Below are positions 175 to 12,702 of a DNA stretch of 64,000 nt, in pieces. The stretch covers positions 1 through 64,000 of the forward strand of contig PRDH01000037.1 of assembly GCA_003345545.1 (NCBI GenBank). The letters are read 5' to 3'. Every line of letters starts with the position of its first letter. Within the stretch, counting starts at the first letter, position 1. A model generated the notes under the pieces. It worked only from the letters and a program-made list of their open reading frames with translations, had not been told where the DNA came from and did not search any database. The translations under genes and the position numbers were made by a program. Source of the stretch: Candidatus Thorarchaeota archaeon. GTDB taxonomy: Archaea > Asgardarchaeota > Thorarchaeia > Thorarchaeales > Thorarchaeaceae.

Positions 175-338
175 GGTTTCCACAGACTCAATCTCTCGTC
201 TATAGATCCAACCTTTTGCATCATATATGGTTCAGCCAGTAAGCTCTTGATTGGATCAGATTACGCTCCTGTCCGGTCTCTCAATAATTGATGACACAGA
301 ATCCGTCTACTGTCTTGAGCTTTCAGAAGAGGTAGTCA

Positions 339-2180
339 TCATGACATGTACGGGTCCTCATGCACATCAATGTCGGCATACCCTGCGTCTTTGAGAAGGT
401 CCTCGATCGACTCGGCTCCGGTAATCCATGAGATACCCCAAGTATTGTCTTCTTTCAAACGCAGTTCGACATCAGGGAGGTCTCCAAGCAGATTATGGTC
501 CATCTCAATAGCATCTTGGTATGCTCCGACCAATGGAATTACAAAATAGGATCCTGGAACACTGTCCAGCACTCCCACAGGAATTCCTTTATCCATCTTT
601 CCTCCTGGCATCGTGACTGGTCTGTTGTCTTTTGTGAACCAGGTCTTCTCTGTGTGCTGTCTATAGAAGTCTGCTATCTCGCCGTCTGAATCGCATGTGA
701 TATCAACCAGTCTCACAGTGCTCTGCGGGTGAATGTGCAGGTCACGAGTTGGAATGACCGGGAAGTGCTGTTGAACCATTACGTGGTCAGCTATGCTGTT
801 GAATACACTGAAGTTCCCAATGACAATGTGTTCAGGATACCAGAAACTTCTCTCCAACTTGTCAGATGAATAAGTCGGTAAGTTCATCTCCCTGAGTCTG
901 GCTCTCACTGCTGTTTCCAGTTTTCCAACGACCATTTCTCTCACGTGTATGGCCTCGAGTCCCGCAAGAGTCATGCCTCCAAAACGCTCGTGGAATTCAT
1001 TCCAGAGACTGACCATTTTTTCGAGTGTGTTGGCATTGTGGATTCTTGTCAGATAGTCTTCCTCAGCTCGAGCGGTTTCCGATTCATGCGTGTCACCAGG
1101 GGTAGGAAAAACCGACCTGAGTTCGAGTGCATGAACGACAATGAGCGCTGCAAGGGCGGTAACAGCCCGCCCCGCTTCTATCATGATGTTTGGCTCTGGA
1201 TGCCTCTTGGAATCTCTCTCAATCTGTGCTTTTACTCCGGTGACAATATTGTAGGCATACTGATACATCAGGTCTGGGGGATATGAGCCAGCATAGTCGA
1301 TTGCCAAGCCTCCACCGAAATCTATGTTCTCCAAGTTTGATAGTCCCATCTCCCGGAGCTCAGAGTAGAGCTTGGTCAGGAAGCTGCCGAATCTTGTGAA
1401 TGCATCAAGGCCAGTGATCTGTGATCCTGCATGGCCAAGAATCGATTTAACCGATTCCGCAAAGCCTGACTGCTTCAACAGCTCAACAACATTGTAGAGG
1501 TCATGAATACTGAGACCGAATTTTGAGTCACGTCCTGTTGAATGGGACCAATGTCCCTCAACATTGAGGTATGGTTTGATGCGCAGTATCAAGTGTGTCT
1601 TTTGGGGTTTGAAATGCTTCACGACGAGTCGTGCCTCTTGTACTGATTCAATCGAGATTCCAATATTCCATCCACTGTCCATACTCGCTTGGATTAGTTT
1701 GAGGTACTTCGGGTCCTTTGTACCATTACAGACAATCTGGCGGTGTTTTTCGTTTTCTGTCAACTTCTTGATCAGGAGCAATTCAGGCTTGGTACCTGCC
1801 TCAAGGCCGTACTCCGAATCGGTTCTAATGACGGCTGTAACAAAGTCCTTGCGTTGGTTGACTTTGACGGGATAGATTCCAATGAATTTTCCTCTGTATC
1901 CCAACTCATCAAAGACTCGCTCAAATGATGCCTTGAGTTTTTTGACCTGATAGGTGATTAGCTGAGGTATGCGGAGTGTGAAAGACGAAGTATATCTAGT
2001 CCCATTCTCGCTCATGCTATTGACACTTCGGACTAATTCCTGGAATGTAATCCTGTGCTTACCTAGCTTGACGCATAGATTGCCATCCTCAGTGATGTCT
2101 AGGAAATGGAGGTCATTTCTACCCACTCCGAATACTGCCTTCGATTTCTCAGCTGACCAAATTTCTTCTGTCATCATCAA
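339..2180 (-). CDS. speA: Biosynthetic arginine decarboxylase (PLP, fold-type III)
   Basis: YPVKVNQ (PLP Lys), GLEAGTKPEL, SKFGLS, DFGGGLAIDY, DITCDSDG, GAYQD..HNLLG. Confidence 0.9.
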   Translation of the reverse strand: MMMTEEIWSAEKSKAVFGVGRNDLHFLDITEDGNLCVKLGKHRITFQELVRSVNSMSENGTRYTSSFTLRIPQLITYQVKKLKASFERVFDELGYRGKFIGIYPVKVNQRKDFVTAVIRTDSEYGLEAGTKPELLLIKKLTENEKHRQIVCNGTKDPKYLKLIQASMDSGWNIGISIESVQEARLVVKHFKPQKTHLILRIKPYLNVEGHWSHSTGRDSKFGLSIHDLYNVVELLKQSGFAESVKSILGHAGSQITGLDAFTRFGSFLTKLYSELREMGLSNLENIDFGGGLAIDYAGSYPPDLMYQYAYNIVTGVKAQIERDSKRHPEPNIMIEAGRAVTALAALIVVHALELRSVFPTPGDTHESETARAEEDYLTRIHNANTLEKMVSLWNEFHERFGGMTLAGLEAIHVREMVVGKLETAVRARLREMNLPTYSSDKLERSFWYPEHIVIGNFSVFNSIADHVMVQQHFPVIPTRDLHIHPQSTVRLVDITCDSDGEIADFYRQHTEKTWFTKDNRPVTMPGGKMDKGIPVGVLDSVPGSYFVIPLVGAYQDAIEMDHNLLGDLPDVELRLKEDNTWGISWITGAESIEDLLKDAGYADIDVHEDPYMS

Positions 2181-2206
2181 TACCCCTGTGTTGCCAGATG
2201 AACATG

Positions 2207-3667
2207 CTATGTTTCTTCGTCCTCTTTGATCGAGTCCAGCATTCCCTGGAATGCGCGTGCTAGCTCACCAATCTCATCGTCTTTTGAGATATAGGATTGG
2301 TCTACTTGCAGATCTTGCGTGTCAAGCGGTTGATCCTTGATTCTTGCAGCCGCATTTCTCGTTGCCAGATCCATCAGGTATTGCAGCGGCCGAGTCACTG
2401 TGTTTGCGACCGAAACTGCCACGATACCTGCTATGATGATGCCCCCAACCGTCACAAAGAGAATGAAGGCTGCAGCTTGGGCATTAGCAGCAAGTATTCT
2501 CTGTTGGAGGGGAGGAATGGCCTGCAGAACTTCATCAAGAGGAACTGCGATTGCGCAGATGTAGTTCCCCTTGCCTACAGGAGTGTAGACCAAGATGCGT
2601 TCAGTTCCATCCCGAGTGTACCTTAGGGCTCCCGATGCACCTGGAGCAATCATGGTATTAATCTGCGATTGAAGAAGTGCGGGGCTATCATCTTCGTTTG
2701 CCTCAATATTCACGAGATTGGGCAGTCCTGCTATGTACGCGGTATCTGGAACCTCGGGATGTGCAACCACAAGTCCATCAGAGTCAATGAGGAATGCATA
2801 ACCTGATTCAAGAACCTTGACATCGATTACTTTCGAACGGATATCCTCGATTGTGATGTCCCCTGAGATGACTGCTCGCGGCTGATAGTTCCAGTACACC
2901 ACCTTTCCGATCGAAATCAGGAGTACATTATCAAACTCGTCGTAATATGGTTCAACGAAGACAGTTTCGCCATCGCCTCCCCATATATCGCTATACCAGT
3001 CCTCGCCTCTAGGATCGTAAGGGTCCGTGTTTCTATCTGAGTCAGTACCCGCAAGTATGCTACCTGGGTAGTTGATGAATAGTCCATCATCAGCAAATGC
3101 GATATAGAGCCATCTGAATTCAACTTGGTCATGAATCGCCTTGAAGATGTAGTCCATATTAGAAACGCGACCAAGCTTGTCACCGCTTATAGGATCAGAT
3201 TCATAGTCATCGTAGTTCGTTGAGTCCGTACCTGAAACGTACCAGCTGCTGTACGTCCAGGATACATTGAGTCCATAATTGTCGTCATACGCACTATCGG
3301 CTGGATCAGGTGCGACTGTGTCATTCTCAAACAGAAGGTCATAGTAGACGATTCGATTGGCATATGTTGAACCACCATCGAATAATGCCTGCAATTCCTC
3401 AGCTGCCGCTTCGATCATTCCCTGTGCGCTTGACAACTTCTGATGAATCACCAATGCTGTCTTCTGGGCCGTCTGTTCCATATTGGTCTGAATCTGGGTT
3501 TCGAGCGCAAGTGAACTCTGGTCCCTTGTGAATCCACCTATGATGTCCACAAAGGTAAGCGAAACAAATCCGGTCACTGAGAGCGACAGTAATGATATCA
3601 CCAAGAAGGTGAGAATCACGTTTGTTCTGAATTTTCCTTTTTTCTTGGTCTGAGTTGTGAGTGACAT
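2207..3667 (-). CDS. Membrane receptor: TM - double Cache - TM - HAMP, no output domain
   Basis: N-terminal TM; YDPRGEDWY...EPYYD...ISGD; GYAFLIDSDGLVVAHP; second TM; HAMP VTRPL...DEIGELARAF, then stop. Confidence 0.85.
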   Translation of the reverse strand: MSLTTQTKKKGKFRTNVILTFLVISLLSLSVTGFVSLTFVDIIGGFTRDQSSLALETQIQTNMEQTAQKTALVIHQKLSSAQGMIEAAAEELQALFDGGSTYANRIVYYDLLFENDTVAPDPADSAYDDNYGLNVSWTYSSWYVSGTDSTNYDDYESDPISGDKLGRVSNMDYIFKAIHDQVEFRWLYIAFADDGLFINYPGSILAGTDSDRNTDPYDPRGEDWYSDIWGGDGETVFVEPYYDEFDNVLLISIGKVVYWNYQPRAVISGDITIEDIRSKVIDVKVLESGYAFLIDSDGLVVAHPEVPDTAYIAGLPNLVNIEANEDDSPALLQSQINTMIAPGASGALRYTRDGTERILVYTPVGKGNYICAIAVPLDEVLQAIPPLQQRILAANAQAAAFILFVTVGGIIIAGIVAVSVANTVTRPLQYLMDLATRNAAARIKDQPLDTQDLQVDQSYISKDDEIGELARAFQGMLDSIKEDEET

Positions 3668-3683
3668 CTCTTCATCTACCTCC

Positions 3684-6539
3684 TTAGTAATCTACTGTTG
3701 TTCCTCCAACTTCGAGCTGTGCCATTAGCACGCCTACCTTGTCAAAGGCTTTCTCGATGTCCATGCGAACGTCGATACTATCGACCACTGACAAGTATTG
3801 CCCCTGTGGTATATTGTTGCAGATCGAATCGAGGAGTTCCTCGGTGGTCATCTGTTGTCCTGTCTTGGGCGAGCGCACTCTCTTTCCGTCAACTGCTGCC
3901 TTTAGTTCTTCACCAACGCCGATCACTATGAGATTCACGTCAAGATGGTTATCACGGATGAATCCCTCGATTGTCAACTTCCTCCTTCTCTTCAGACGGT
4001 CATTCTGAGTGAATATGCCTTCTAGCGCATCGAGAGAATATGTCTTCGAGCTGTTGTCCTGACCATCAGACAGTGCGATGACCCACCGATGCTCGCTCGA
4101 CTCTATTTTGTTCAATTCCTCCAGAGCCCGACCCAACGCGTCGTAGAACGCAGTTGCATAATTGGGATACTTCAGAGCATCAAGAGCTCGAACAATAGGG
4201 CTTTCGTCTTCGCCGTATTCGCCCTTGAGAGTGAGGGGCAAAACCTCGCGATATGTGGTATTGAAGATTATAATCGACACAGCATCCTGTGGATTCACTT
4301 GGCTACGGAGGATTTCTCTTGCTCCGGTAACAGCTGCCTTGATCCTCTGCTGTGCCTGCATGCTACCTGAGTAGTCGATCACAAAGGTAACGCTCTTCTT
4401 GTATAGAATGGAGCGCCTAAGCCTCTCAGCTTTCCTTCGAACATCATGACTCGGTTTGTTCAACTGGTCTAGAACATCAGCAAGCCGCTGCATGGCGAAA
4501 ACGACGAGCCACAACTCATCAGTTGCTTCTCCAAGCTTGACTGCATCACTATAGGACTTCTCCGCTTTTTTCCAGTTGCCTTGAACCTGGAACAGCTCAC
4601 CCTCGTGATAACTGATGTAAGCCAAGCTTCTCTCATAGTTGATGGATTTCGCAGTCTCTTCTGCCTCACTGAAACGAGACTGGGCTTGACTGTATCGGCC
4701 ATCCTTCATGAGAACAAGTCCCATGGCGTCATAGCGTCTGGCCAGGCCGTAGGCATTCTTTTGCGTCATGTCAATAGCTTGGGCATCTTCAAGTAGCTTC
4801 ATCGCGGCCTCAAAATTGCCACGGTCCATCTCCACGAGCGCCATGTTGTGATAGATAGACGCGATTCGGGTCATGGCATCCTTCTCATCGGTGCCGTCTT
4901 CCTTGGCTCTTTCGAGTAGCTTGTTCGAGATGGTCAGTGACTGGCCATAGTAGTCTATGGCATTCGCTGTGTCACCACGCTGTCGGAAGACATTCCCAAT
5001 GTTCAGCAGCATTGTCTGTTCTCCCGCTTCAATCTTCAACCTTCTGCTGATCTCTAGTAGATTCTCATAGTTGGCAAGTGCCCTCCTGAGGTCTCCACGT
5101 ATGAATGCTTGATTTCCGAAACGCATTGCCTCCTGGAAGCTTAGCAGAGCATCGACCGTGGTCCCCACTTCTTCGTACATTGCCCCCGCAGTCGTTACAC
5201 CTCTTGTGAAGTCTTGTCGAGCCATCTTCTGTACTAGACGGGTCATCTCGGTTATTGGCTCGACCACAGCTCTTCCTCGTCTAGTTGAAACAACGGATAC
5301 AACAGCTGCCACGGCAATCAAGATGCCACCAAGCACAGCAGTAAGGATAAGCGTTCGAGTTGCCACAAGATTGAGAATGTCTATTGCTGGTGCAATGACA
5401 TCAGATTCCGGCACCACGACAGCTAGTATGTAATTAGTGCCCTTGATCTGTACAAAAGCCATGTGCCAAGTGTTAGCATTCTTTTGATACTCAAGTAGTC
5501 CTGACTCTTCACCAATTACTTGCGTTGTCAAAAGGTTCCTGAACGCTATAGCTTCCGAAGTCACGTTTCCAAACTCGAGTATCTCGATGGGTGCGACCTC
5601 TTCATCCAGGGATTGGTCCTTGTGGGCAACAACATTTGCAGAAGTGTCTAGCATGAAGGCATACCCATTCGTCGACACATTCAGATTCAATACTCTGTCA
5701 AGTACTGTTGCCATCGTGACGTCTGCGGACACAACACCGATGAGCGTGCCATTATCGTATCTCACGGGTCTGCCCATTGATATGACCAGGCCGACTGGGT
5801 CGACATATGGTGCAGTGAGAATGACGCTGTCATTGCCAGGTGCGATGGTGGCCACATTTGTGTACCATTCTTGTGCATTGGCATCATAGTCTAGGCCAGG
5901 TCCATCGTAGTTAACAAAATAGCTCAAGTCATCAAAGGGATAGTTCTTGAAGAGATGCTGGTCAGACACTCCTAGGTCATATCCCATGTAGAGCCACTTG
6001 TAGTCCTCATTCATCTCGTGAAGCGCTTTGAAGATGTTGATCATATTTGACGAGTAGTCAAGAGCAACCTGGGTGCTTGGGGAGAAATCGTGTGGGTCAT
6101 TGTTGTTCCATTCAGAGCGTGGAATGAAGTAGCAATCGGCTGCAAAGGAGATGAATTCCGATTCATAGGCTTCGACAATTTCGTCATCTGTTTCGAATGT
6201 ACCCAAAAGATCTGACCATTGAGGTTCTTCACTAATGTTCCAATAATAGCTATACTGTGGAGTTGCTGAGATCCTGCCATTGAATAGATCTTCGCAATAA
6301 GCCTCCAACATATACACTCCATCAATATAGCTCTTCCACCTCTCTTCAATGAAGAGAGCAGTATCGTTTGAGAGTCTCTGGAGGTTGGCCAATTCCTCGG
6401 CCTTCAGTGCTGAAGCAGCATCCCCTGCATTGGCATTTGAAACTGTGAATATCTCACCCACTGACAGAGCCGAGATTACCAGCATCGGCACCAGCGCGAC
6501 AACCACGAACGTAACAACGATTCTTCTCGAAATGTCCAT
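3684..6539 (-). CDS. Membrane receptor: TM - double Cache - TM - HAMP - TPR repeats - VWA
   Basis: YDANAQEWY...APYVD...VSAD; GYAFMLD; HAMP; TPR helices (NIGNVFRQRGD..AIDYY, HNMALVEMDRGNFEAA); VWA with MIDAS DYSGS...T...SDG. Confidence 0.85.
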   Translation of the reverse strand: MDISRRIVVTFVVVALVPMLVISALSVGEIFTVSNANAGDAASALKAEELANLQRLSNDTALFIEERWKSYIDGVYMLEAYCEDLFNGRISATPQYSYYWNISEEPQWSDLLGTFETDDEIVEAYESEFISFAADCYFIPRSEWNNNDPHDFSPSTQVALDYSSNMINIFKALHEMNEDYKWLYMGYDLGVSDQHLFKNYPFDDLSYFVNYDGPGLDYDANAQEWYTNVATIAPGNDSVILTAPYVDPVGLVISMGRPVRYDNGTLIGVVSADVTMATVLDRVLNLNVSTNGYAFMLDTSANVVAHKDQSLDEEVAPIEILEFGNVTSEAIAFRNLLTTQVIGEESGLLEYQKNANTWHMAFVQIKGTNYILAVVVPESDVIAPAIDILNLVATRTLILTAVLGGILIAVAAVVSVVSTRRGRAVVEPITEMTRLVQKMARQDFTRGVTTAGAMYEEVGTTVDALLSFQEAMRFGNQAFIRGDLRRALANYENLLEISRRLKIEAGEQTMLLNIGNVFRQRGDTANAIDYYGQSLTISNKLLERAKEDGTDEKDAMTRIASIYHNMALVEMDRGNFEAAMKLLEDAQAIDMTQKNAYGLARRYDAMGLVLMKDGRYSQAQSRFSEAEETAKSINYERSLAYISYHEGELFQVQGNWKKAEKSYSDAVKLGEATDELWLVVFAMQRLADVLDQLNKPSHDVRRKAERLRRSILYKKSVTFVIDYSGSMQAQQRIKAAVTGAREILRSQVNPQDAVSIIIFNTTYREVLPLTLKGEYGEDESPIVRALDALKYPNYATAFYDALGRALEELNKIESSEHRWVIALSDGQDNSSKTYSLDALEGIFTQNDRLKRRRKLTIEGFIRDNHLDVNLIVIGVGEELKAAVDGKRVRSPKTGQQMTTEELLDSICNNIPQGQYLSVVDSIDVRMDIEKAFDKVGVLMAQLEVGGTTVDY

Positions 6540-6603
6540 CTTCCCTTTTTCACCTACAGTGCTGAATTATACCTACACGCAATAACATCTTTGCCTCTCT
6601 TTC

Positions 6604-8058
6604 CTACCCCGCTTGAGCCCTCAATTCCTCGATCAGCTTGCCAACGAAGTATTCCATATCCGTCTTCTCACTTGGAATGAATCGCTCTCCTTCAAATGTT
6701 CCCTTAACAATGCCCTCACCTAGAAGGATTATCAGAGTCCTTCTGAGGATTGTTCGATCTACACCCGTCTGCCTCTCCATACGAGCGACATCCACACTGT
6801 CAGTCTCTTTGAGCAGATTCAGCAATGTGGTTTCGATATTGTTGATATCTTTCTCTCCAATCTTGACCGACTTCTTACGCTTCTTGAACTCTGTCCTAAC
6901 AAACGTGCTACCATCCAGATGTCCGTCTATGGCTTCGCTCTTGATCATAGCCTGCAGGCTCCTGCGCAGGTTATAGGCTGCAGGTCTGGGCAGTGTCTTT
7001 CGAAGAATCCTGTCTAGGTCCTTCAACTTGATCTGGTTGTGCTTTGAGGTGATCGAATCTATGCTCTCCTGGATGTATTCCTCAATGACGTATTCTTCAA
7101 TCAACTGAAGAGGTGCTCCGCAAGCTGCACACTCTGATGCCTCTGGCGACGTTGGAGCTCCACAGTTGCCACACTTTATTGCCCTACGATACAGTATCTC
7201 CTTGGTTGAGCCAATCTGTTGAAGAATCACTCTCTCGCTTCTCGATGCCTTCCCTGACTGCTCAACTTCCCAGAAGCTGAGTCTGTTGTCCTTCGTGCTC
7301 ACCACAAGGTAAGCGATATCTGAGATCTCATCAGGCACGCCTGTTGCCATGGCGCGTGGAACATCGCTCTCCTCAATCTGTGCAATCTCATTGCCGTCAA
7401 TGTCCCAGACTCGGAGAATGGGCGTCATATCCCCTGTAACGAAAAGCTTTCTCTCTTCGAACGACAGAACTGCGAAGACTGTAATCTTGTCGCCTAGCTG
7501 AAGTTCACGCAAGAAATACCCTGCAGAGGTCAGTATGCTCACTTTTCCAGTCATCTCTGCAATGACAACCTCAAGCTCATTATCAGTCGTGATGTCCTCA
7601 AGCCAAACATCTGATATGGGCTGATTCACATTCCTTGTGAAAATCGCATCCTTGTCATCGTTATACAGGATGACTCTGTTGTTCTCCAAAGCGACAACGA
7701 CTTCAGCTGCGTCATCACCGTCAACATCCCGGGCATCGCAAGCAACTACATCACTCTCAAGGTTGATGTTCCAGACTGTGCTGCCTCGATGATCTACGAC
7801 AAGGACCTTCTTGCCGACGCCGCCCACCAGTGAATCTTGGCCTTCTCCTTCGACATCTGCAACGGCAATACATCTGACCTTGCTGCTCCATTTTCGCGTG
7901 CTCGTGAGAGCACCCGTTGCGTCGAAGACACGAAGCCTATCGCCATAGTCTAGCGAGAAGACCTGCGTGCTAGCGTCTCTTCTCTGTCGGACATAGACCG
8001 AGTATACATTTGACACAGTGGGTACACTCGCAACCTCGCGAATCTTCAAACCGCTCAT
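6604..8058 (-). CDS. FG-GAP/WD-like beta-propeller + double zinc ribbon + two PCI/UFL1-like winged-helix domains
   Basis: Repeats ADVEGEG, RDVDGDDAAEVVV, EDITTDNELEVVI; CGNCG..ECAACG; two WH-like ends (AIDGHLDGSTF, IVKGTFEGERF). Start moved to ATG 8058 to avoid overlap with the divergent gene. Confidence 0.7.
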   Translation of the reverse strand: MSGLKIREVASVPTVSNVYSVYVRQRRDASTQVFSLDYGDRLRVFDATGALTSTRKWSSKVRCIAVADVEGEGQDSLVGGVGKKVLVVDHRGSTVWNINLESDVVACDARDVDGDDAAEVVVALENNRVILYNDDKDAIFTRNVNQPISDVWLEDITTDNELEVVIAEMTGKVSILTSAGYFLRELQLGDKITVFAVLSFEERKLFVTGDMTPILRVWDIDGNEIAQIEESDVPRAMATGVPDEISDIAYLVVSTKDNRLSFWEVEQSGKASRSERVILQQIGSTKEILYRRAIKCGNCGAPTSPEASECAACGAPLQLIEEYVIEEYIQESIDSITSKHNQIKLKDLDRILRKTLPRPAAYNLRRSLQAMIKSEAIDGHLDGSTFVRTEFKKRKKSVKIGEKDINNIETTLLNLLKETDSVDVARMERQTGVDRTILRRTLIILLGEGIVKGTFEGERFIPSEKTDMEYFVGKLIEELRAQAG

Positions 8059-8112
8059 AGCACCTTCTTCAGCATTGTTGCATATCCATATAAGTTTGCT
8101 AGGCCTCCAAGG

Positions 8113-9195
8113 ATGATGATGAGAAAAGCTGCCAAATGCAGTGTCGGCTTTCTTTGGAGTCCCCTTCTCGAAACCTTTGACTTTGGAAAGAAACATCCTA
8201 TTCGAGTGGGACGCTTCAAGATGATACATGACTTTGTGGAAGAGCAAGGCTTCCTCGATCTACCCAGTGTCCGAGTCATCACTCCTGAACCATTGTCTGA
8301 AGAACTATTGAGAGTCATTCATGCTGAGGGTTACATCGCGAGTGTTCAGAGAATCTCCGAGTCTGGTGTCGGCGAGATTGACATCGATACGCCGGGATTC
8401 AAGGGGATTTACACCAATGCACGAATTGTCTCTGGTGCATCGGTCACGGGAGTCAAAGCAGTTCTATCAGGTGAAATAGACCACTTTGTTTCACCCACGG
8501 GCGGGTTCCATCATGCCATGTATGAACATGGGGGTGGTTTCTGCATCTTCAACGACGTCGCAGCCTGCGTCTATGAACTGAAACAGAGAGGTGTCGAGAG
8601 AGTCCTCATAGCTGATTTCGATGTACACCATGGTAACGGAACTCAGGAGTATTTCTATGATGACCCCGGTGTGATGCAGATCTCTTTTCATGAGGACCCT
8701 GAGTGGATGTATCCTCATGATGGTTTCATTGAAGACATTGGGGCGGGAGCAGGTCAGGGATTCAACATTAACATGCCTTTTCCAATGGACTCTGGCGACG
8801 AGGTCTACAGATATGCCTTCGATAGACTAGTGCCCAAACTAATTCACTACTACAGACCTCAGTTCATCCTGTTCATACCTGGCTTCGATGCGCACTATTT
8901 GGACCGACTTGCTCACCTCAAACTGACCACTGATATGACTCGCTACATAACGTCGGGGATTCATAGGGCTGCTCATGATTACTGCAATGGAAAGATGGGC
9001 GCTATGACTGGGGGCGGGTATCACCCAGATTCTCTACTGTGGGGCATCGGAACTGTGATATCAGAACTCTCCGGAGCTCCCTATGACCCCCCTCCACAGA
9101 AGGCTCCATTCAAAGATAACAAGGAAACATGGGATGAGGTAAAGGCCAATGTTGCCAGATTGGAGGAATTGGTCTTCCCGATTCTTGGTATATAG
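8113..9195 (+). CDS. Histone deacetylase-family Zn deacetylase (AcuC/acetylpolyamine amidohydrolase-like)
   Basis: HP, GGFHHA, GFCIFND, DFDVHHGNGTQ, GFDAH..D, GGGY. Confidence 0.92.
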   Translation: MMMRKAAKCSVGFLWSPLLETFDFGKKHPIRVGRFKMIHDFVEEQGFLDLPSVRVITPEPLSEELLRVIHAEGYIASVQRISESGVGEIDIDTPGFKGIYTNARIVSGASVTGVKAVLSGEIDHFVSPTGGFHHAMYEHGGGFCIFNDVAACVYELKQRGVERVLIADFDVHHGNGTQEYFYDDPGVMQISFHEDPEWMYPHDGFIEDIGAGAGQGFNINMPFPMDSGDEVYRYAFDRLVPKLIHYYRPQFILFIPGFDAHYLDRLAHLKLTTDMTRYITSGIHRAAHDYCNGKMGAMTGGGYHPDSLLWGIGTVISELSGAPYDPPPQKAPFKDNKETWDEVKANVARLEELVFPILGI

Positions 9196-9197
9196 TT

Positions 9198-9830
9198 TCA
9201 GTCTGTTTCTGCTATCAATCTACGTGCCAAATCTACTGCACTCATGGCATCTTTCCCAAACGCATCTGCGCCGGTGTAGTCCACAATGCTCTGGTCGATA
9301 TCTCCCCCGCCAATCATGACCTTCACTTTTTTCCTCATGCCTGCCTGTTTGAGCGCAGCTATGGTCTTCTTCATGATATCATGTGTCGTCGTAATCAGAC
9401 CGCTCAGGGCGAGAACCTTAGCATTTGTTTCTCTTAGTTTCTCAACGAACTTCTCGGGGGCGACGTCTTCGCCAAGGTCATGAACTTCAAAACCATTGGA
9501 CTTCAAAAAGGCGACAACGAGGTTCTTTCCGATATAGTGTATATCTCCTTGTACAGTACCGATGACGATCTTCCCACTATAGCTCGATTTCTGAGCTGAC
9601 AGCAGGGCCGGCTCGAGTTTCTCCATTGCTCGTTTGAATACATCAGCTGACATGACGAGCTCTACGAGAAAGTACTCATTCCTTGAGAATCTTTCACCAA
9701 CAATGTCCATCCCTTCTTTGAGTTGACCAAGAATTGTGTGCGGGTCTGTGCCATTTGAGAGGTATGTTTCAACGAGACGAAGTACCCGTTGGTCATCGAT
9801 GTCTGCCATAGCTGTAGCAAGTTCGGTCAC
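9198..9830 (-). CDS. Corrinoid (cobalamin-binding) methyl-carrier protein, MtaC/MttC-like
   Basis: N-terminal cap GMDIVGERF..EYFL.EL; DIHYIGKNLV (DxHxxG); LSGL, IGGG, GADA. Confidence 0.9.
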   Translation of the reverse strand: MTELATAMADIDDQRVLRLVETYLSNGTDPHTILGQLKEGMDIVGERFSRNEYFLVELVMSADVFKRAMEKLEPALLSAQKSSYSGKIVIGTVQGDIHYIGKNLVVAFLKSNGFEVHDLGEDVAPEKFVEKLRETNAKVLALSGLITTTHDIMKKTIAALKQAGMRKKVKVMIGGGDIDQSIVDYTGADAFGKDAMSAVDLARRLIAETD

Positions 9831-9898
9831 TTGATTTGATGCCTCCAGATGTAGTTTTGAACGCCTAAGAGTAGGAACGATGTATCATATATCTTTCC

Positions 9899-11491
9899 TC
9901 ATACCAGCGCGATTGAATCAAGAAACACACTCTGGAAATCTTCGTGGGCCGCAAGGTCAACGTGCCTCGTATCCCTGGCTATTCTCTCCGCTTTAGCCCT
10001 GCTTTCCAATGAGAGCAGTAGTCCTTTTGCGCCCTCTCCAGCAGCGTTTCCTACTGGGATAATCTGCGATATGTCAACTCGTGGCAGAAGGCCAATGGTC
10101 AGAGCACTCTTTGGGCTGATGTAGTTTCCAAACGCTCCTGCAAGCAGCACTCTATCTATATCTGGGACTCCTAGACCGACTTCTTCTAGCAGGAGTCTAG
10201 TTCCTGCTTGGATAGCTGCCTTTGCAAGCTGTACCTGCCGAACATCCTTCTGAGTGAATATGATACGCTTCCTCTGCTTCGGTTCATCGGACTTCCAGAC
10301 ACGATAGAACAGTCCTAGCTTCTCGTTACTCTCGACCATTGGACTTCCCTCGAGTATTCTCCCCGTAGTATTGATGAGCCCTGCTTGTTTCATCTCAGCA
10401 ACAACGTCCACAATTGCCGAGCCACAGAGACCTTGAGGAGCGACGTCGCCAATCACAGTGACTTCGGCTTGTGAATTTGCATCGTGAATGATAACATGCT
10501 CTATTGCGCCTGTCTGACCTCGCATGCCGTGGTGGATGCTGGCTCCTTCGAATGCGGATCCTGCTGCCGCTGAGCAGCAAACTAGTTCTCCATGATTTGA
10601 GAGTACGATCTCTCCGTTGGTTCCGATGTCTATTCCGATCGTAACATCGTCAGTAGAATCGAGCTGCTGTGAAAGGATAAACGCTACTGTGTCTCCTCCA
10701 ACAAATCCTGCAATATTCGGTGCCACATAGAGCTCGGTACTCTCTCCAATGTGCAAGTCAATGCTGCGTGCTCTCTGTGTTACTGCATTGTATATCTTGG
10801 GTGCGTATGGTGAGAGTCCGAGAGATGTCACGTCAGTCCCCAGTAGCAGATGGCCCATGGCTGTATTGCCGACGACAGCGACTCTTGTCACTTCGGCTGC
10901 ATCGACCCCAGCCGCCTGAATAAGTTGAGTGGCAAGTTGATTGAGCTCATTCACGACTCTGCGCTGAAGTACCTTGGCCCCGTTTTCTTCACGCATTACA
11001 TGAGTGATTCGAGACATTATATCGTCCCCAAAGACGTTTTGGGGGTTCAGCGATGCGGCTCGAGCCAGCTGTACTCCGTCTGAGAGATCAAGAAGAAACG
11101 CAGCAATAGTTGTCGTTCCGAGGTCGATGGCTATCCCAAACTGCCCATTCAGACTCGAATCGAGTTCCCAGTGTCCTGCAACTCCTTCTGTGAGAATCTT
11201 TGCCTCTTCTGCACGCTGTGGAAGAATGACTCTGATCGCCCTTGATGTCTTATGCCTGCACGCCAGTCTGGCTCCCTTGCCTAATTCAGTCACAGGAATC
11301 TTCTCAATGTCCTGTCGAGTTGGTCTTCCTGCTGGCTCAACAAAGACGTGACACTTGCCGCATGTTCCTCTTCCTCCACACTCATTTGTGATGTGAAGTC
11401 CGACTTCTCTTGCTGCATCCAGAATTGTGAATGATGCATCTGCTGCCACTCGTAGGCCCGACGGTTCGAATACCACGAGGCGTTTAGGCAT
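9899..11491 (-). CDS. Reductive activator of corrinoid proteins (RACo/RamA-type ASKHA ATPase with N-terminal 2Fe-2S ferredoxin)
   Basis: CGGRGTCGKC...RLAC; IDLGTTT; GFVGGD; IDIGTNGE; GLCGS; QLAKAAI; AGAFG; GNAA. Confidence 0.92.
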   Translation of the reverse strand: MPKRLVVFEPSGLRVAADASFTILDAAREVGLHITNECGGRGTCGKCHVFVEPAGRPTRQDIEKIPVTELGKGARLACRHKTSRAIRVILPQRAEEAKILTEGVAGHWELDSSLNGQFGIAIDLGTTTIAAFLLDLSDGVQLARAASLNPQNVFGDDIMSRITHVMREENGAKVLQRRVVNELNQLATQLIQAAGVDAAEVTRVAVVGNTAMGHLLLGTDVTSLGLSPYAPKIYNAVTQRARSIDLHIGESTELYVAPNIAGFVGGDTVAFILSQQLDSTDDVTIGIDIGTNGEIVLSNHGELVCCSAAAGSAFEGASIHHGMRGQTGAIEHVIIHDANSQAEVTVIGDVAPQGLCGSAIVDVVAEMKQAGLINTTGRILEGSPMVESNEKLGLFYRVWKSDEPKQRKRIIFTQKDVRQVQLAKAAIQAGTRLLLEEVGLGVPDIDRVLLAGAFGNYISPKSALTIGLLPRVDISQIIPVGNAAGEGAKGLLLSLESRAKAERIARDTRHVDLAAHEDFQSVFLDSIALV

Positions 11492-11499
11492 CTGATCAC

Positions 11500-12405
11500 C
11501 TATCCGATTCTGAACCTTGGATGCTGCCTGTCCGGTCTAATGCCTTCTTCTAGAAAGACGCCTGATAGTGCAGTGTCAATCATCGCAATGGACGGGAATA
11601 CAATTGGCGCGTGCCTGATTGGACCGTAGAGGACAAAGTCAGCTCCAAGCACGACAGGCATGAGACTGGAACCAGCAAGAGCTACATCCCTGGCTTCCCT
11701 ACCAAACTTCGGCACAAGTCCGACCCATGTATTCACTGCATTGTGAGCTCCACACCCTACCGGAAATCCCAACTTATCTTTTGTATCTCGCAAAGCCTTG
11801 CATGCGATACCAAGCGTCAGCATGTCTACAACCCCTGTGTCAATCATTATGTTCTGAATTCCGATTGTCAGAGACCTGTTCAGCAATTCTTCGGCAATCC
11901 TAAGCCTCTTCTTCGAAGAAGCCATGGACTCGCTGTCAAAGGCCAGAACAACTGCGTTCTTCAGCCCCAGTCCATGCATTTCTTCGAGGATGCTAGGATC
12001 AGTTTCCGGAACTATGGAATTGAGGACAACTCGTTCCATTATTCCAAGCTCGGATGCTCTCTTTAATCCCGCCAGATTCACTTCATTTGAACCCGAGCCA
12101 TCGATAAGCAGAGGCATCTCTGTGATATCGGAGAGGAGTGAAATGTACTGTTTCATGGCATCTGGCGTGGCACCGACGACATCTAGCATACTGGGGAGAC
12201 CGGTAGCATCAGATATCTTTGACAGCTGTTCGATGGCTTCTTCTACCTTAGATCGTTGTACTGTTCCCTTCTTGGGATCCTGCACAAGCTTGTCCTTGCT
12301 GTAAAAAACGGAGCCAATGAGGACTGTTGGAGTGAGTCCGGGCTGCCCACCAATCTTGACACGCCCTATTTCGAGGGTCTTCTGAACTGCTGAATAGTGA
12401 TACAC
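11500..12405 (-). CDS. mtrH: Tetrahydromethanopterin methyltransferase subunit H-like (MtrH/MtgA)
   Basis: IGGQPG..PTVLIGSVFY, GFPVGCGAHNA, GADFVLYGPI, HP at C-terminus. GTG start at 12405 follows a CAGGAG RBS. Confidence 0.85.
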   Translation of the reverse strand: MYHYSAVQKTLEIGRVKIGGQPGLTPTVLIGSVFYSKDKLVQDPKKGTVQRSKVEEAIEQLSKISDATGLPSMLDVVGATPDAMKQYISLLSDITEMPLLIDGSGSNEVNLAGLKRASELGIMERVVLNSIVPETDPSILEEMHGLGLKNAVVLAFDSESMASSKKRLRIAEELLNRSLTIGIQNIMIDTGVVDMLTLGIACKALRDTKDKLGFPVGCGAHNAVNTWVGLVPKFGREARDVALAGSSLMPVVLGADFVLYGPIRHAPIVFPSIAMIDTALSGVFLEEGIRPDRQHPRFRIG

Positions 12406-12702
12406 ACACTTGGTCTCCTGTGCTATGCACAGACATTCAATTGTGCCTTTAAGCACACAGGTTCTGCCTGAACCTCATATGCCAAGGAGAAGCTCGATAC
12501 TTGCGGCATACTTTGAGGACTTACTGTGGTGGTTCATCAAGAAGAGTCTAATCTGGTCCAACCAAAGATGTGAAGTTTGGTGCTTAGCTGGGACTCGCCA
12601 AGTGAATAGGAAGTGAATTATCCCAGATAGCTTAACAAGCATACGGTCATGATTAGACGAACTCGAGGACACGGAAGCGTCATATGTGGGGTCTGATTCA
12701 TC

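Follow-up and report, generated by a model that had tools for sequence, protein, structure and literature searches.

A conserved pair of Asgard archaeal sensors whose extended dCache_1 ectodomains are probably of the alpha2delta/CACHD1 type

The window analysed here is the first 64,000 nucleotides of contig PRDH01000037.1 (assembly GCA_003345545.1) from a Candidatus Thorarchaeota archaeon, and this report concerns two adjoining genes on its minus strand, between positions 2207 and 6539, that encode the membrane-bound sensors P0001 (the long sensor) and P0002 (the short sensor). We put at about 0.7 the probability that these proteins each form one half of a sensor module conserved in Asgard archaea, working by a mechanism like that proposed below, and that their extended dCache_1 domains are of the same structural type as the first Cache domain of the eukaryotic proteins alpha2delta and CACHD1, of which they would be uninterrupted cousins. 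Gabapentin and pregabalin are drugs that target alpha2delta, and CACHD1 is a modulator of calcium channels and Wnt receptors. The two ectodomains represent a dCache_1 variant through which a receptor family found across Asgard archaea is linked to the alpha2delta/CACHD1 module; judged from sequence, this Asgard-wide family also holds proteins from Heimdallarchaeota and Hodarchaeales (the Heimdall-type proteins) that have a VWA domain at the alpha2delta position. The parts of the two sensors that matter for this conclusion are as follows.

P0001, the long sensor: 3684..6539, minus strand, 951 amino acids (open reading frame and translation).
P0001 layout, minus strand: transmembrane helix 1 (TM1) at residues 7-29, extended dCache ectodomain at 30-395, TM2 at 396-418, HAMP-like linker at 421-470, TPRs at ~471-700, VWA domain with a metal-ion-dependent adhesion site (MIDAS) at 716-951.
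P0001 pre-pocket extension: 6003..6281, minus strand, about residues 87-179 (AlphaFold2 (AF2) model, hhalign slices, extension-only profile E 1.4e-39).
P0002, the short sensor: 2207..3667, minus strand, 486 amino acids (open reading frame and translation).
P0002 layout, minus strand: TM1 at residues 17-44, extended dCache ectodomain at 45-397, TM2 at 398-421, HAMP at 420-481, no output domain.
P0002 pre-pocket extension: 3113..3382, minus strand, about residues 96-185 (hhalign slice, extension-only profile E 1.1e-37).

Each sensor holds one Cache domain by Pfam, and the two Caches sit on separate adjoining genes. In the AF2 models both ectodomains have a double PDC fold between two transmembrane helices, with Z-scores of 19-21 to solved dCache domains along the entire length of the latter. 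P0002 matches Pfam dCache_1 (PF02743) with 71.4 bits (residues 189-369, profile positions 65-235), which is above the gathering cut-off of 45 bits, and P0001 is just below that cut-off with 40.1 bits (residues 208-375, profile positions 73-240), or 42.3 bits for the ectodomain alone; all 64 ectodomains of the wider family match this model at E<=0.01. Directly after TM2, P0002 has a HAMP domain (PF00672; 26.0 bits versus a cut-off of 25, residues 420-481). There is no Pfam HAMP match in P0001 at E<=1, and its residues 421-470 are called HAMP-like by eye and position only; Pfam HAMP matches the relatives P0270 and P0272 at the equivalent position. The preliminary description of this locus had placed a complete MIDAS VWA at the C-terminus of the long protein, after HAMP and TPRs. 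Pfam confirms both the VWA and the TPRs (several families including TPR_12, residues about 473-690), and the HAMP of P0001 is assigned by position.

The feature that sets both ectodomains apart is a segment of 70-90 residues that follows the stalk helix and precedes the first strand of the ligand-binding module. In the AF2 model of P0001 it consists of a Tyr-rich irregular segment and two helices that are absent from ordinary dCache_1. The pocket motif lies 178-189 residues into the two ectodomains, versus about 93-112 residues in ten ordinary chemoreceptor dCache_1 domains, which gives about 80 extra residues. Likewise, the Pfam dCache_1 matches of the two sensors begin at profile position 65-73, which leaves about 150-190 N-terminal ectodomain residues unassigned, whereas the ten ordinary domains match the whole model from position 2-10. 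The strings quoted from P0002 in the preliminary description, DDNYGLNVSWTYSSWYVS, LGRVSNMDYIFK, RWLYIAFADDGLFINYP and YDPRGEDWY, are present in that order, and P0001 has the parallel series AYESEFISFAADCYFIP, SSNMINIFKAL, KWLYMGY, LFKNYP and YDANAQEWY. With these strings in place and the additional length, the claim of a pre-pocket segment in both ectodomains holds. The description had also given a motif order for the Pfam family VWA_N, which is the N-terminal part of a dCache_1 domain split by a VWA (Gumerov et al. 2022, PMC8915833). That order is colinear in a MAFFT alignment with CACHD1-like proteins of Owenia, Saccoglossus and Nonionella, where the motifs YY.D; PPD..YD..YG..IS..YS.Y.I.P; S.NMD.IF; W.Y.GF..G....YP; and YDPR.RPWY line up in the Thorarchaeota, Heimdall-type and eukaryotic rows. 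Slices confined to the extension are homologous among the three Asgard families by hhalign (probabilities of 92-97%): the P0001 slice scores 92.3% with the Heimdall-type family and 96.9% with that of P0002, and the P0002 slice scores 95.9% with the Heimdall-type family.

The comparison of structures points in the same direction. The first AF2 model of the P0002 ectodomain had a predicted local distance difference test score (pLDDT) of 67, with low confidence in the extension; the model of the P0001 ectodomain (m69804f9e5e77, built from a 64-sequence alignment) has a pLDDT of 93.7 and no weak stretch. When the latter was compared exhaustively, without Foldseek, with 48,161 representative PDB chains, the top match was alpha2delta-1 (8x90_B) with Z 20.1, a root-mean-square deviation of 3.1 A, 298 aligned residues and 21% identity, and CACHD1 (8s7c_A) aligned over 288 residues with Z 16.0. 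The alpha2delta/CACHD1 chains 8x90_B, 7mix_D, 8fd7_D and 8s7c_A gave the longest alignments among the solved chains (288-307 residues, Z 16-20, 20-22% identity); bacterial and archaeal Cache domains, in two structure searches, aligned over at most 263 residues with Z of at most 19.7. The eukaryotic chains are thereby set apart by a gain of 40-60 aligned residues, which roughly equals the length of the extension (model residues 58-124). A Foldseek comparison with CACNA2D1 and CACHD1, which the preliminary description had proposed as a check, was favorable in part: alpha2delta has the highest query-normalised template-modelling score (0.62-0.66 versus 0.38-0.53 for the bacterial domains), and alpha2delta-1 is third by E-value (2.9e-12), but bacterial amino-acid chemoreceptors head the E-value list. 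The model of P0002 shows the same trend towards alpha2delta. The longer alignments are suggestive of the enlarged N-terminal Cache part, as judged from alignment lengths.

The link by sequence runs through a bridging protein, P0295, that was reached by an exhaustive search of 1.84 billion representatives. It is a metagenomic protein of 993 amino acids (locus L001, 1416-4397, on a contig with 4-bp gene overlaps, where the next gene upstream but one encodes a HEAT-repeat protein). The first Cache of P0295 is split by a VWA directly after YDPTVRPWY and the second is whole; the second is 26% identical to P0002 over 337 residues, extension included, and its score of 40.2 bits for Pfam VWA_N (PF08399) exceeds the gathering cut-off (34.7 bits). 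P0295 is most closely related to about 20 proteins, 570-640 amino acids long, from Hodarchaeales, Heimdallarchaeota and Kariarchaeaceae (P0395-P0414, named 'VWA domain-containing proteins'), and the next matches are eukaryotic CACHD1-like proteins from Owenia (1.6e-41), Saccoglossus (2e-33) and Nonionella (9e-30). A profile of the Heimdall-type family has CACHD1 (8s7c, E 5.9e-43) and alpha2delta-1 (~3e-35) as its best solved relatives, and these alignments take in the VWA together with the part before it and the Cache after it. This same family aligns by hhalign with the P0002 family at 99.2% (E 8e-20; 345 columns that start at TM1 and reach the ectodomain's end) and with the P0001 family at 99.6% (E 5e-25, likewise through the whole ectodomain, starting at the N-terminus); in both cases the VWA stands out as a single clean insert. 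The window proteins show a gap at the VWA in these alignments, and both of their ectodomains are uninterrupted. Over the pre-VWA region with the pocket motif, the Thorarchaeota families also align with the eukaryotic set (hhalign 86-87%, E ~4-5e-6, up to 143 columns). Single-sequence phmmer searches of PDB gave alpha2delta-1 at ~1e-5 in two stretches (one of them alpha2delta residues 78-245) and CACHD1 at 0.006 for the P0002 ectodomain, and CACHD1 at 3.5e-6 for that of P0001. No gene for a VWA-inserted Cache is present in the window's own genome. One Heimdall-type protein with a VWA-inserted Cache, P0402, is labelled Thorarchaeota in its source, which reflects either a binning label or a patchy distribution.

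The sensor pair is conserved together with a beta-propeller gene, and usually with an arginine decarboxylase gene, across Thorarchaeota, Lokiarchaeota and Hodarchaeota. In the window these two neighbours flank the sensors.

P0004, beta-propeller protein and upstream neighbour of the sensors: open reading frame 6604-8247, minus strand, with a probable start at Met64 that gives 6604..8058 and ~484 amino acids.
P0003, SpeA-like biosynthetic arginine decarboxylase directly downstream of P0002: 339..2180, minus strand, 613 amino acids.

P0004, P0001, P0002 and P0003 are arranged head to tail with gaps of 64, 16 and 26 nucleotides in turn, and GGAGGT is located 10 nucleotides ahead of the P0002 ATG. 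P0003 matches NCBIfam NF003763 with 349 bits (cut-off 369, E 5e-104) and also Pfam Orn_Arg_deC_N. Another Thorarchaeota genome and a Lokiarchaeota genome have these genes in the order beta-propeller, long, short, decarboxylase, with the decarboxylase at the same position in both (loci L009 and L008), and a Hodarchaeota genome has the long gene, the short gene (4-bp overlap) and then the beta-propeller gene. In a survey sampled around the window's own lineage, the extension profile matched 70 of the 85 genomes of the window's family, usually exactly twice, about 2.9 kb apart and in frames of ~950 and ~490 amino acids; across the phylum it matched 121 of 400 genomes and 36 of 85 genera. At least 120 full-length orthologues of P0001 were found (59-96% identity), nearly all labelled Thorarchaeota, and the orthologues of P0002 (56-95% identity) are labelled almost only Thorarchaeota.

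One alternative is that P0001 and P0002 are ordinary archaeal dCache_1 sensors and that their likeness to VWA_N is only the generic YDPRxRPWY motif common to dCache_1AA and alpha2delta. As VWA_N is itself the N-terminal part of dCache_1, any dCache_1 would resemble it somewhat (Gumerov et al. 2022, PMC8915833), and bacterial amino-acid chemoreceptors are the best PDB sequence matches of both ectodomains as well as the head of the Foldseek list. Furthermore, Pfam VWA_N scoring, another of the proposed checks, was negative: it matches neither P0001 nor P0002 at E<=1, and a search of all frames of the 2.69-Mb genome gave nothing at E<=10. In the wider family, however, 20 of the 64 ectodomains match VWA_N at E<=0.01 (best 1.7e-7), with scores of 24-31 bits that are below the cut-off and at profile positions ~52-126 in the cases seen, versus none of the 10 ordinary chemoreceptor Cache domains at E<=1. 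Since eight of these ten have the canonical motif, the likeness to VWA_N is not that of a generic amino-acid-sensor motif, and this control weakens the alternative. The ectodomains are also ~80 residues longer than ordinary ones and align over 288-307 residues with alpha2delta/CACHD1 versus at most 263 with bacterial domains, and a tree separates them from ordinary domains with support of 99/97. We consider it improbable that the sensors are of the ordinary kind.

This tree was built from 42 Cache domains with the VWAs excised (352 columns, LG+C20), and the split just mentioned separates the ordinary chemoreceptor domains from all Asgard and eukaryotic rows. P0002 falls in a 'short' clade (100/99) and P0001 in a 'long' clade with Lokiarchaeota and Hodarchaeota members (82/79). 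Sister to the long clade (85/82) is a clade (99/98) made up of the Heimdall-type VWA-inserted rows, two further rows and the second Cache of P0295, and the four eukaryotic VWA-inserted rows form one clade (96/84). Forcing all of the VWA-inserted rows into one clade costs 18.8 log-likelihood units (p-AU 0.053), so that such a clade is neither shown nor rejected. These placements would make the window proteins cousins of the alpha2delta module and not its ancestor. The preliminary description had offered two possibilities, a prokaryotic relative of alpha2delta/CACHD1 or a domain-shuffling precursor. The first stands at the level of the family, which is linked by profile alignment, structure, VWA_N matches in 20 of 64 ectodomains and the tree, but not by any VWA_N match in the window pair itself. 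The second is not supported, with the two proteins in two Asgard clades beside the eukaryotic clade and with a genome that has no VWA-inserted Cache. A protein of 1015 amino acids from the EukProt transcriptome of Platysulcus tardus, P0323, resembles P0001 in its Cache/TPR/C-terminal VWA layout and falls within the Asgard long clade (93/70), as a result of either culture contamination or transfer.

Several results weigh against our reading of the two sensors as cousins of the alpha2delta/CACHD1 module, in addition to the VWA_N searches that missed the window pair and its genome. A profile of the P0002 family searched against PDB matched alpha2delta only after the VWA. An extension-only profile made from 39 Asgard sequences found neither alpha2delta nor CACHD1 in PDB, nor anything significant, and N-terminal pieces alone (P0002 50-235, P0001 40-245) found nothing relevant there. 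An extension-only hhalign comparison with four eukaryotic sequences gave a probability of 0.1-0.2%, which is not evidence of absence because the eukaryotic alignment is thin. Since the extension by itself has no sequence match to eukaryotes, its homology to the N-terminal half of VWA_N depends on the structural aligned length and on motifs read by eye. In the structure comparison, the Z-scores of alpha2delta and of the best bacterial Cache in the top rows are tied within 1. In the tree, the outgroup consists of 10 chemoreceptors picked among the matches to P0002 itself, and with that outgroup the eukaryotic clade is sister to all of the Asgard rows, with weak support for Asgard monophyly (80/42). 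Finally, the predicted ligand, the pairing of P0001 with P0002 and the partner of the VWA, which belong to the mechanism, are proposals only.

The tree alone cannot tell whether eukaryotes inherited or acquired the alpha2delta-type module. In the published account, the Cache sensor passed from Bacteria to eukaryotes and the VWA was inserted at the stage of the last eukaryotic common ancestor; Asgard archaea go unmentioned in that account (Gumerov et al. 2022, PMC8915833). We can envisage, somewhat short of even odds, that the Asgard extended-Cache family is the archaeal stock of the eukaryotic alpha2delta/CACHD1 module and that both the extension and the Heimdall VWA insertion predate the last eukaryotic common ancestor. 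If this were true, the uninterrupted Thorarchaeota proteins would represent the state before the VWA insertion, and the insertion would not have arisen at the last eukaryotic common ancestor after a bacterial transfer.

The opposite direction would be that the Asgard family came from a eukaryotic alpha2delta-like gene by horizontal transfer and that the VWA was later lost in the Thorarchaeota forms. The position of the eukaryotic clade outside the Asgard rows and the weak Asgard monophyly would agree with this, a single clade of Heimdall-type and eukaryotic VWA-inserted rows is not firmly rejected, and the Platysulcus protein inside the Asgard long clade indicates that exchange or contamination between the domains of life does occur. 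However, the family is broad and old in Asgard archaea, as seen from the numbers of genomes and genera given above and from the synteny across three phylum-level groups, and an architecture with two transmembrane helices and HAMP is typically prokaryotic. A eukaryotic origin of the Asgard family therefore appears unlikely. Slightly less probable again is that the extension arose independently in Asgard archaea and eukaryotes, as convergent insertions at the same loop. This would account for the lack of significant Asgard-eukaryote sequence similarity in the extension alone, but the motifs are colinear, the extra structural aligned length (about 50-60 residues) is near the size of the extension, and the flanking regions are demonstrably homologous.

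The presence of a VWA in P0001 requires separate consideration because alpha2delta and CACHD1 also have one.

P0001 VWA with complete MIDAS: 3687..4394, minus strand, D722, S724, S726, T796 and D825 (Pfam).

This domain matches Pfam VWA_2 with 47.2 bits (cut-off 27) and VWA with 32.9 bits (cut-off 23.8) over residues 717-877, and its MIDAS residues D722-x-S724-x-S726, T796 and D825 are invariant in 22 orthologues. From the two transmembrane helices and the positive-inside rule, it is predicted to be on the cytoplasmic side. The preliminary description had implied a kinship with the alpha2delta VWA, and this finds no support in direct comparison: BLASTP of the P0001 VWA against the inserted VWA gave E 0.35, and with a profile of the P0001-family VWA the median score of bacterial VIT-VWA proteins (40.9 bits) is higher than those of the eukaryotic inserted (33.6 bits) and Heimdall-type inserted (29.9 bits) VWAs. 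The best solved relatives of this profile are ITIH4 (5.8e-12), CLCA1 and ANTXR2, and neither alpha2delta nor CACHD1 is among the 60 solved matches listed. The P0001 VWA thus appears to be a generic MIDAS VWA that was acquired independently and has no special relation to the alpha2delta-type VWA; with its predicted cytoplasmic position, the parts list in common with alpha2delta would be a coincidence of common domains. The preliminary description had named two outcomes that would count against it, ectodomains that group with ordinary Cache domains and a VWA unrelated to that of alpha2delta; the tree gave the opposite of the first, and the second is what was found. That the alpha2delta/CACHD1 arrangement arose by relocation of the C-terminal VWA from its place in a P0001-like protein to the Cache loop, as a Cache and a MIDAS VWA in one chain, the occurrence of the long architecture in Thorarchaeota, Lokiarchaeota and Hodarchaeota and the sister position of the Heimdall-type clade might suggest, is hardly credible given these scores and a VWA that is extracellular in one case and predicted to be cytoplasmic in the other.

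The neighbouring genes display some additional features. By Pfam, P0004 is an FG-GAP/BBS2-like beta-propeller protein, and it also has a CxxC...CxxC zinc ribbon and a C-terminal helical region. The four zinc-ribbon Cys are invariant in an alignment with the neighbours from loci L009, L008 and L006, and the P0004 cluster in the protein atlas has 118 members and is assigned to Archaea, with Thorarchaeota the commonest. Weak Pfam matches of P0004 to the propellers of the BBSome proteins BBS2/BBS7 and of IFT122 were seen, and the protein is Asgard-specific; the Hodarchaeota version lacks the helical tail. A search of PDB with the C-terminal region of P0004 found no match, so that a DNA-binding role for this tail is supported by no test. 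A gene of the histone-deacetylase family (8113-9195, plus strand; Pfam Hist_deacetyl E 8e-77) is divergent from the module, an arrangement that is also present in locus L009. Further along, 9198-12456 on the minus strand is a corrinoid methyl-transfer cluster that encodes a B12-binding protein, a RACo-type reductive activator (Fer2 + RACo) and an MtrH-like methyltransferase. The DNA of the locus is nearly identical in wetland metagenomes from two studies (85-93% of sampled words). One wetland RNA library, compared over window positions 300-9300, has contigs that differ at 0-4 positions from parts of speA, P0001 and P0004. As DNA can occur in such libraries, this is weak evidence for the expression of these three genes; the contigs leave P0002 uncovered, and a contig gap proves nothing.

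The pocket motifs offer some hints about what the sensors recognize.

P0001 pocket motif, Y218-DANAQE-W225-Y226: 5862..5888, minus strand, with Gln223 at the position of the carboxylate-binding Arg.
P0002 pocket motif, Y217-DPRGED-W224-Y225: 2993..3019, minus strand, with Glu222 at the Arg position.

Both sensor families keep the Tyr, Trp, Tyr and Asp of the amino-acid motif, but the AA_motif of dCache_1AA (Y-x4-R-x-W-Y...Y...D) is absent from P0001 and P0002 in that the Arg is replaced. At the Arg position, 20 orthologues of P0002 have Glu (15) or Asp (5), and 22 orthologues of P0001 have Glu (17), Gln (4) or Leu (1); all 18 Heimdall-type proteins counted retain the Arg. Given the Glu or Gln in place of the carboxylate-binding Arg, free amino acids are improbable ligands, and the compound sensed probably either lacks a carboxylate or has a positive charge at this site. 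Agmatine or a polyamine would fit as a candidate, because SpeA adjoins the sensors and the deacetylase-family gene is divergent from them. The histone-deacetylase family takes in acetylpolyamine amidohydrolases, and by this analogy the neighbour would fit a polyamine theme. The dCache_1AM amine sensors are defined by AM_motif residues that include a small pocket insertion (PMC10104139); in the window sensors the Arg is lost and the Asp retained.

We propose that a small ligand would bind in the membrane-distal pocket of the ectodomain and that the signal would run via TM2 and HAMP to a non-enzymatic cytoplasmic output, where the TPR scaffold and the MIDAS VWA of P0001 would associate with, or let go of, a partner protein. 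Lacking an output domain, P0002 presumably acts as a co-sensor together with P0001, which has protein-binding modules only; a two-protein sensor is the most economical reading of this arrangement. Prediction of a complex between P0001 residues 465-951 and P0004 gave 0.00, 0.66 and 0.00 in three runs, which is no evidence either way.

The existence of an Asgard-wide Cache family with an enlargement probably of the alpha2delta type makes the history of this module testable, and that history is probably older than in the published account. One Asgard branch carries a VWA at the same loop as alpha2delta, and the window adds the uninterrupted form. The four-gene context also provides a concrete hypothesis on what an archaeal Cache senses, and the proposed TPR-VWA output of P0001 is unusual and non-enzymatic. 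A full-text search of the literature for Asgard together with CACHD1, alpha2delta, or dCache plus VWA found no paper describing this link.

Among known systems, the amino-acid chemoreceptors of the dCache_1AA class, which includes PctA/B/C, Mlp24, Mlp37 and CtaA (Gumerov et al. 2022, PMC8915833), give the best sequence matches (E 1e-8 to 1e-10), which cover the pocket and the proximal module. They share with the window sensors the fold (Z about 19-21) and the topology of two transmembrane helices with HAMP. However, they are ~80 residues shorter before the pocket, match the whole dCache_1 model, have the Arg, and have a signalling domain as output where P0001 has TPR-VWA. The Heimdall-type proteins P0395-P0414 and P0295, which are also from Asgard archaea, have the same extended Cache as the window sensors, with the Tyr-rich segment PPD..YD..YG..IS..YS.Y; they differ in having a MIDAS VWA right after RPWY, the full amino-acid motif, a single terminal transmembrane helix and no HAMP or output.

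Eukaryotic proteins with a single dCache_1 and a VWA occur in protists and invertebrates (Gumerov et al. 2022, PMC8915833). Those of Nonionella (P0419), Owenia (P0415) and Saccoglossus (P0416) have colinear N-terminal motifs and are on the same side of the 99/97 split as the window sensors, but they belong to the separate 96/84 clade and have a signal peptide instead of TM1. Lastly, the first dCache_1 of alpha2delta-1 and CACHD1 (8x90_B, 7mix_D, 8fd7_D and 8s7c_A) is, like those of the window sensors, a double-PDC Cache, the enlarged N-terminal part is probably shared as well, and both have the common order helix, W.Y.G strand, YP, Y....x.WY, PY.D and D. In contrast to alpha2delta and CACHD1, the window sensors are without the VWA after WY, the second nested Cache and the VGCC_alpha2 region; they are prokaryotic receptors with two transmembrane helices and a cytoplasmic HAMP, and the Arg that serves gabapentin and amino acids is Glu or Gln.

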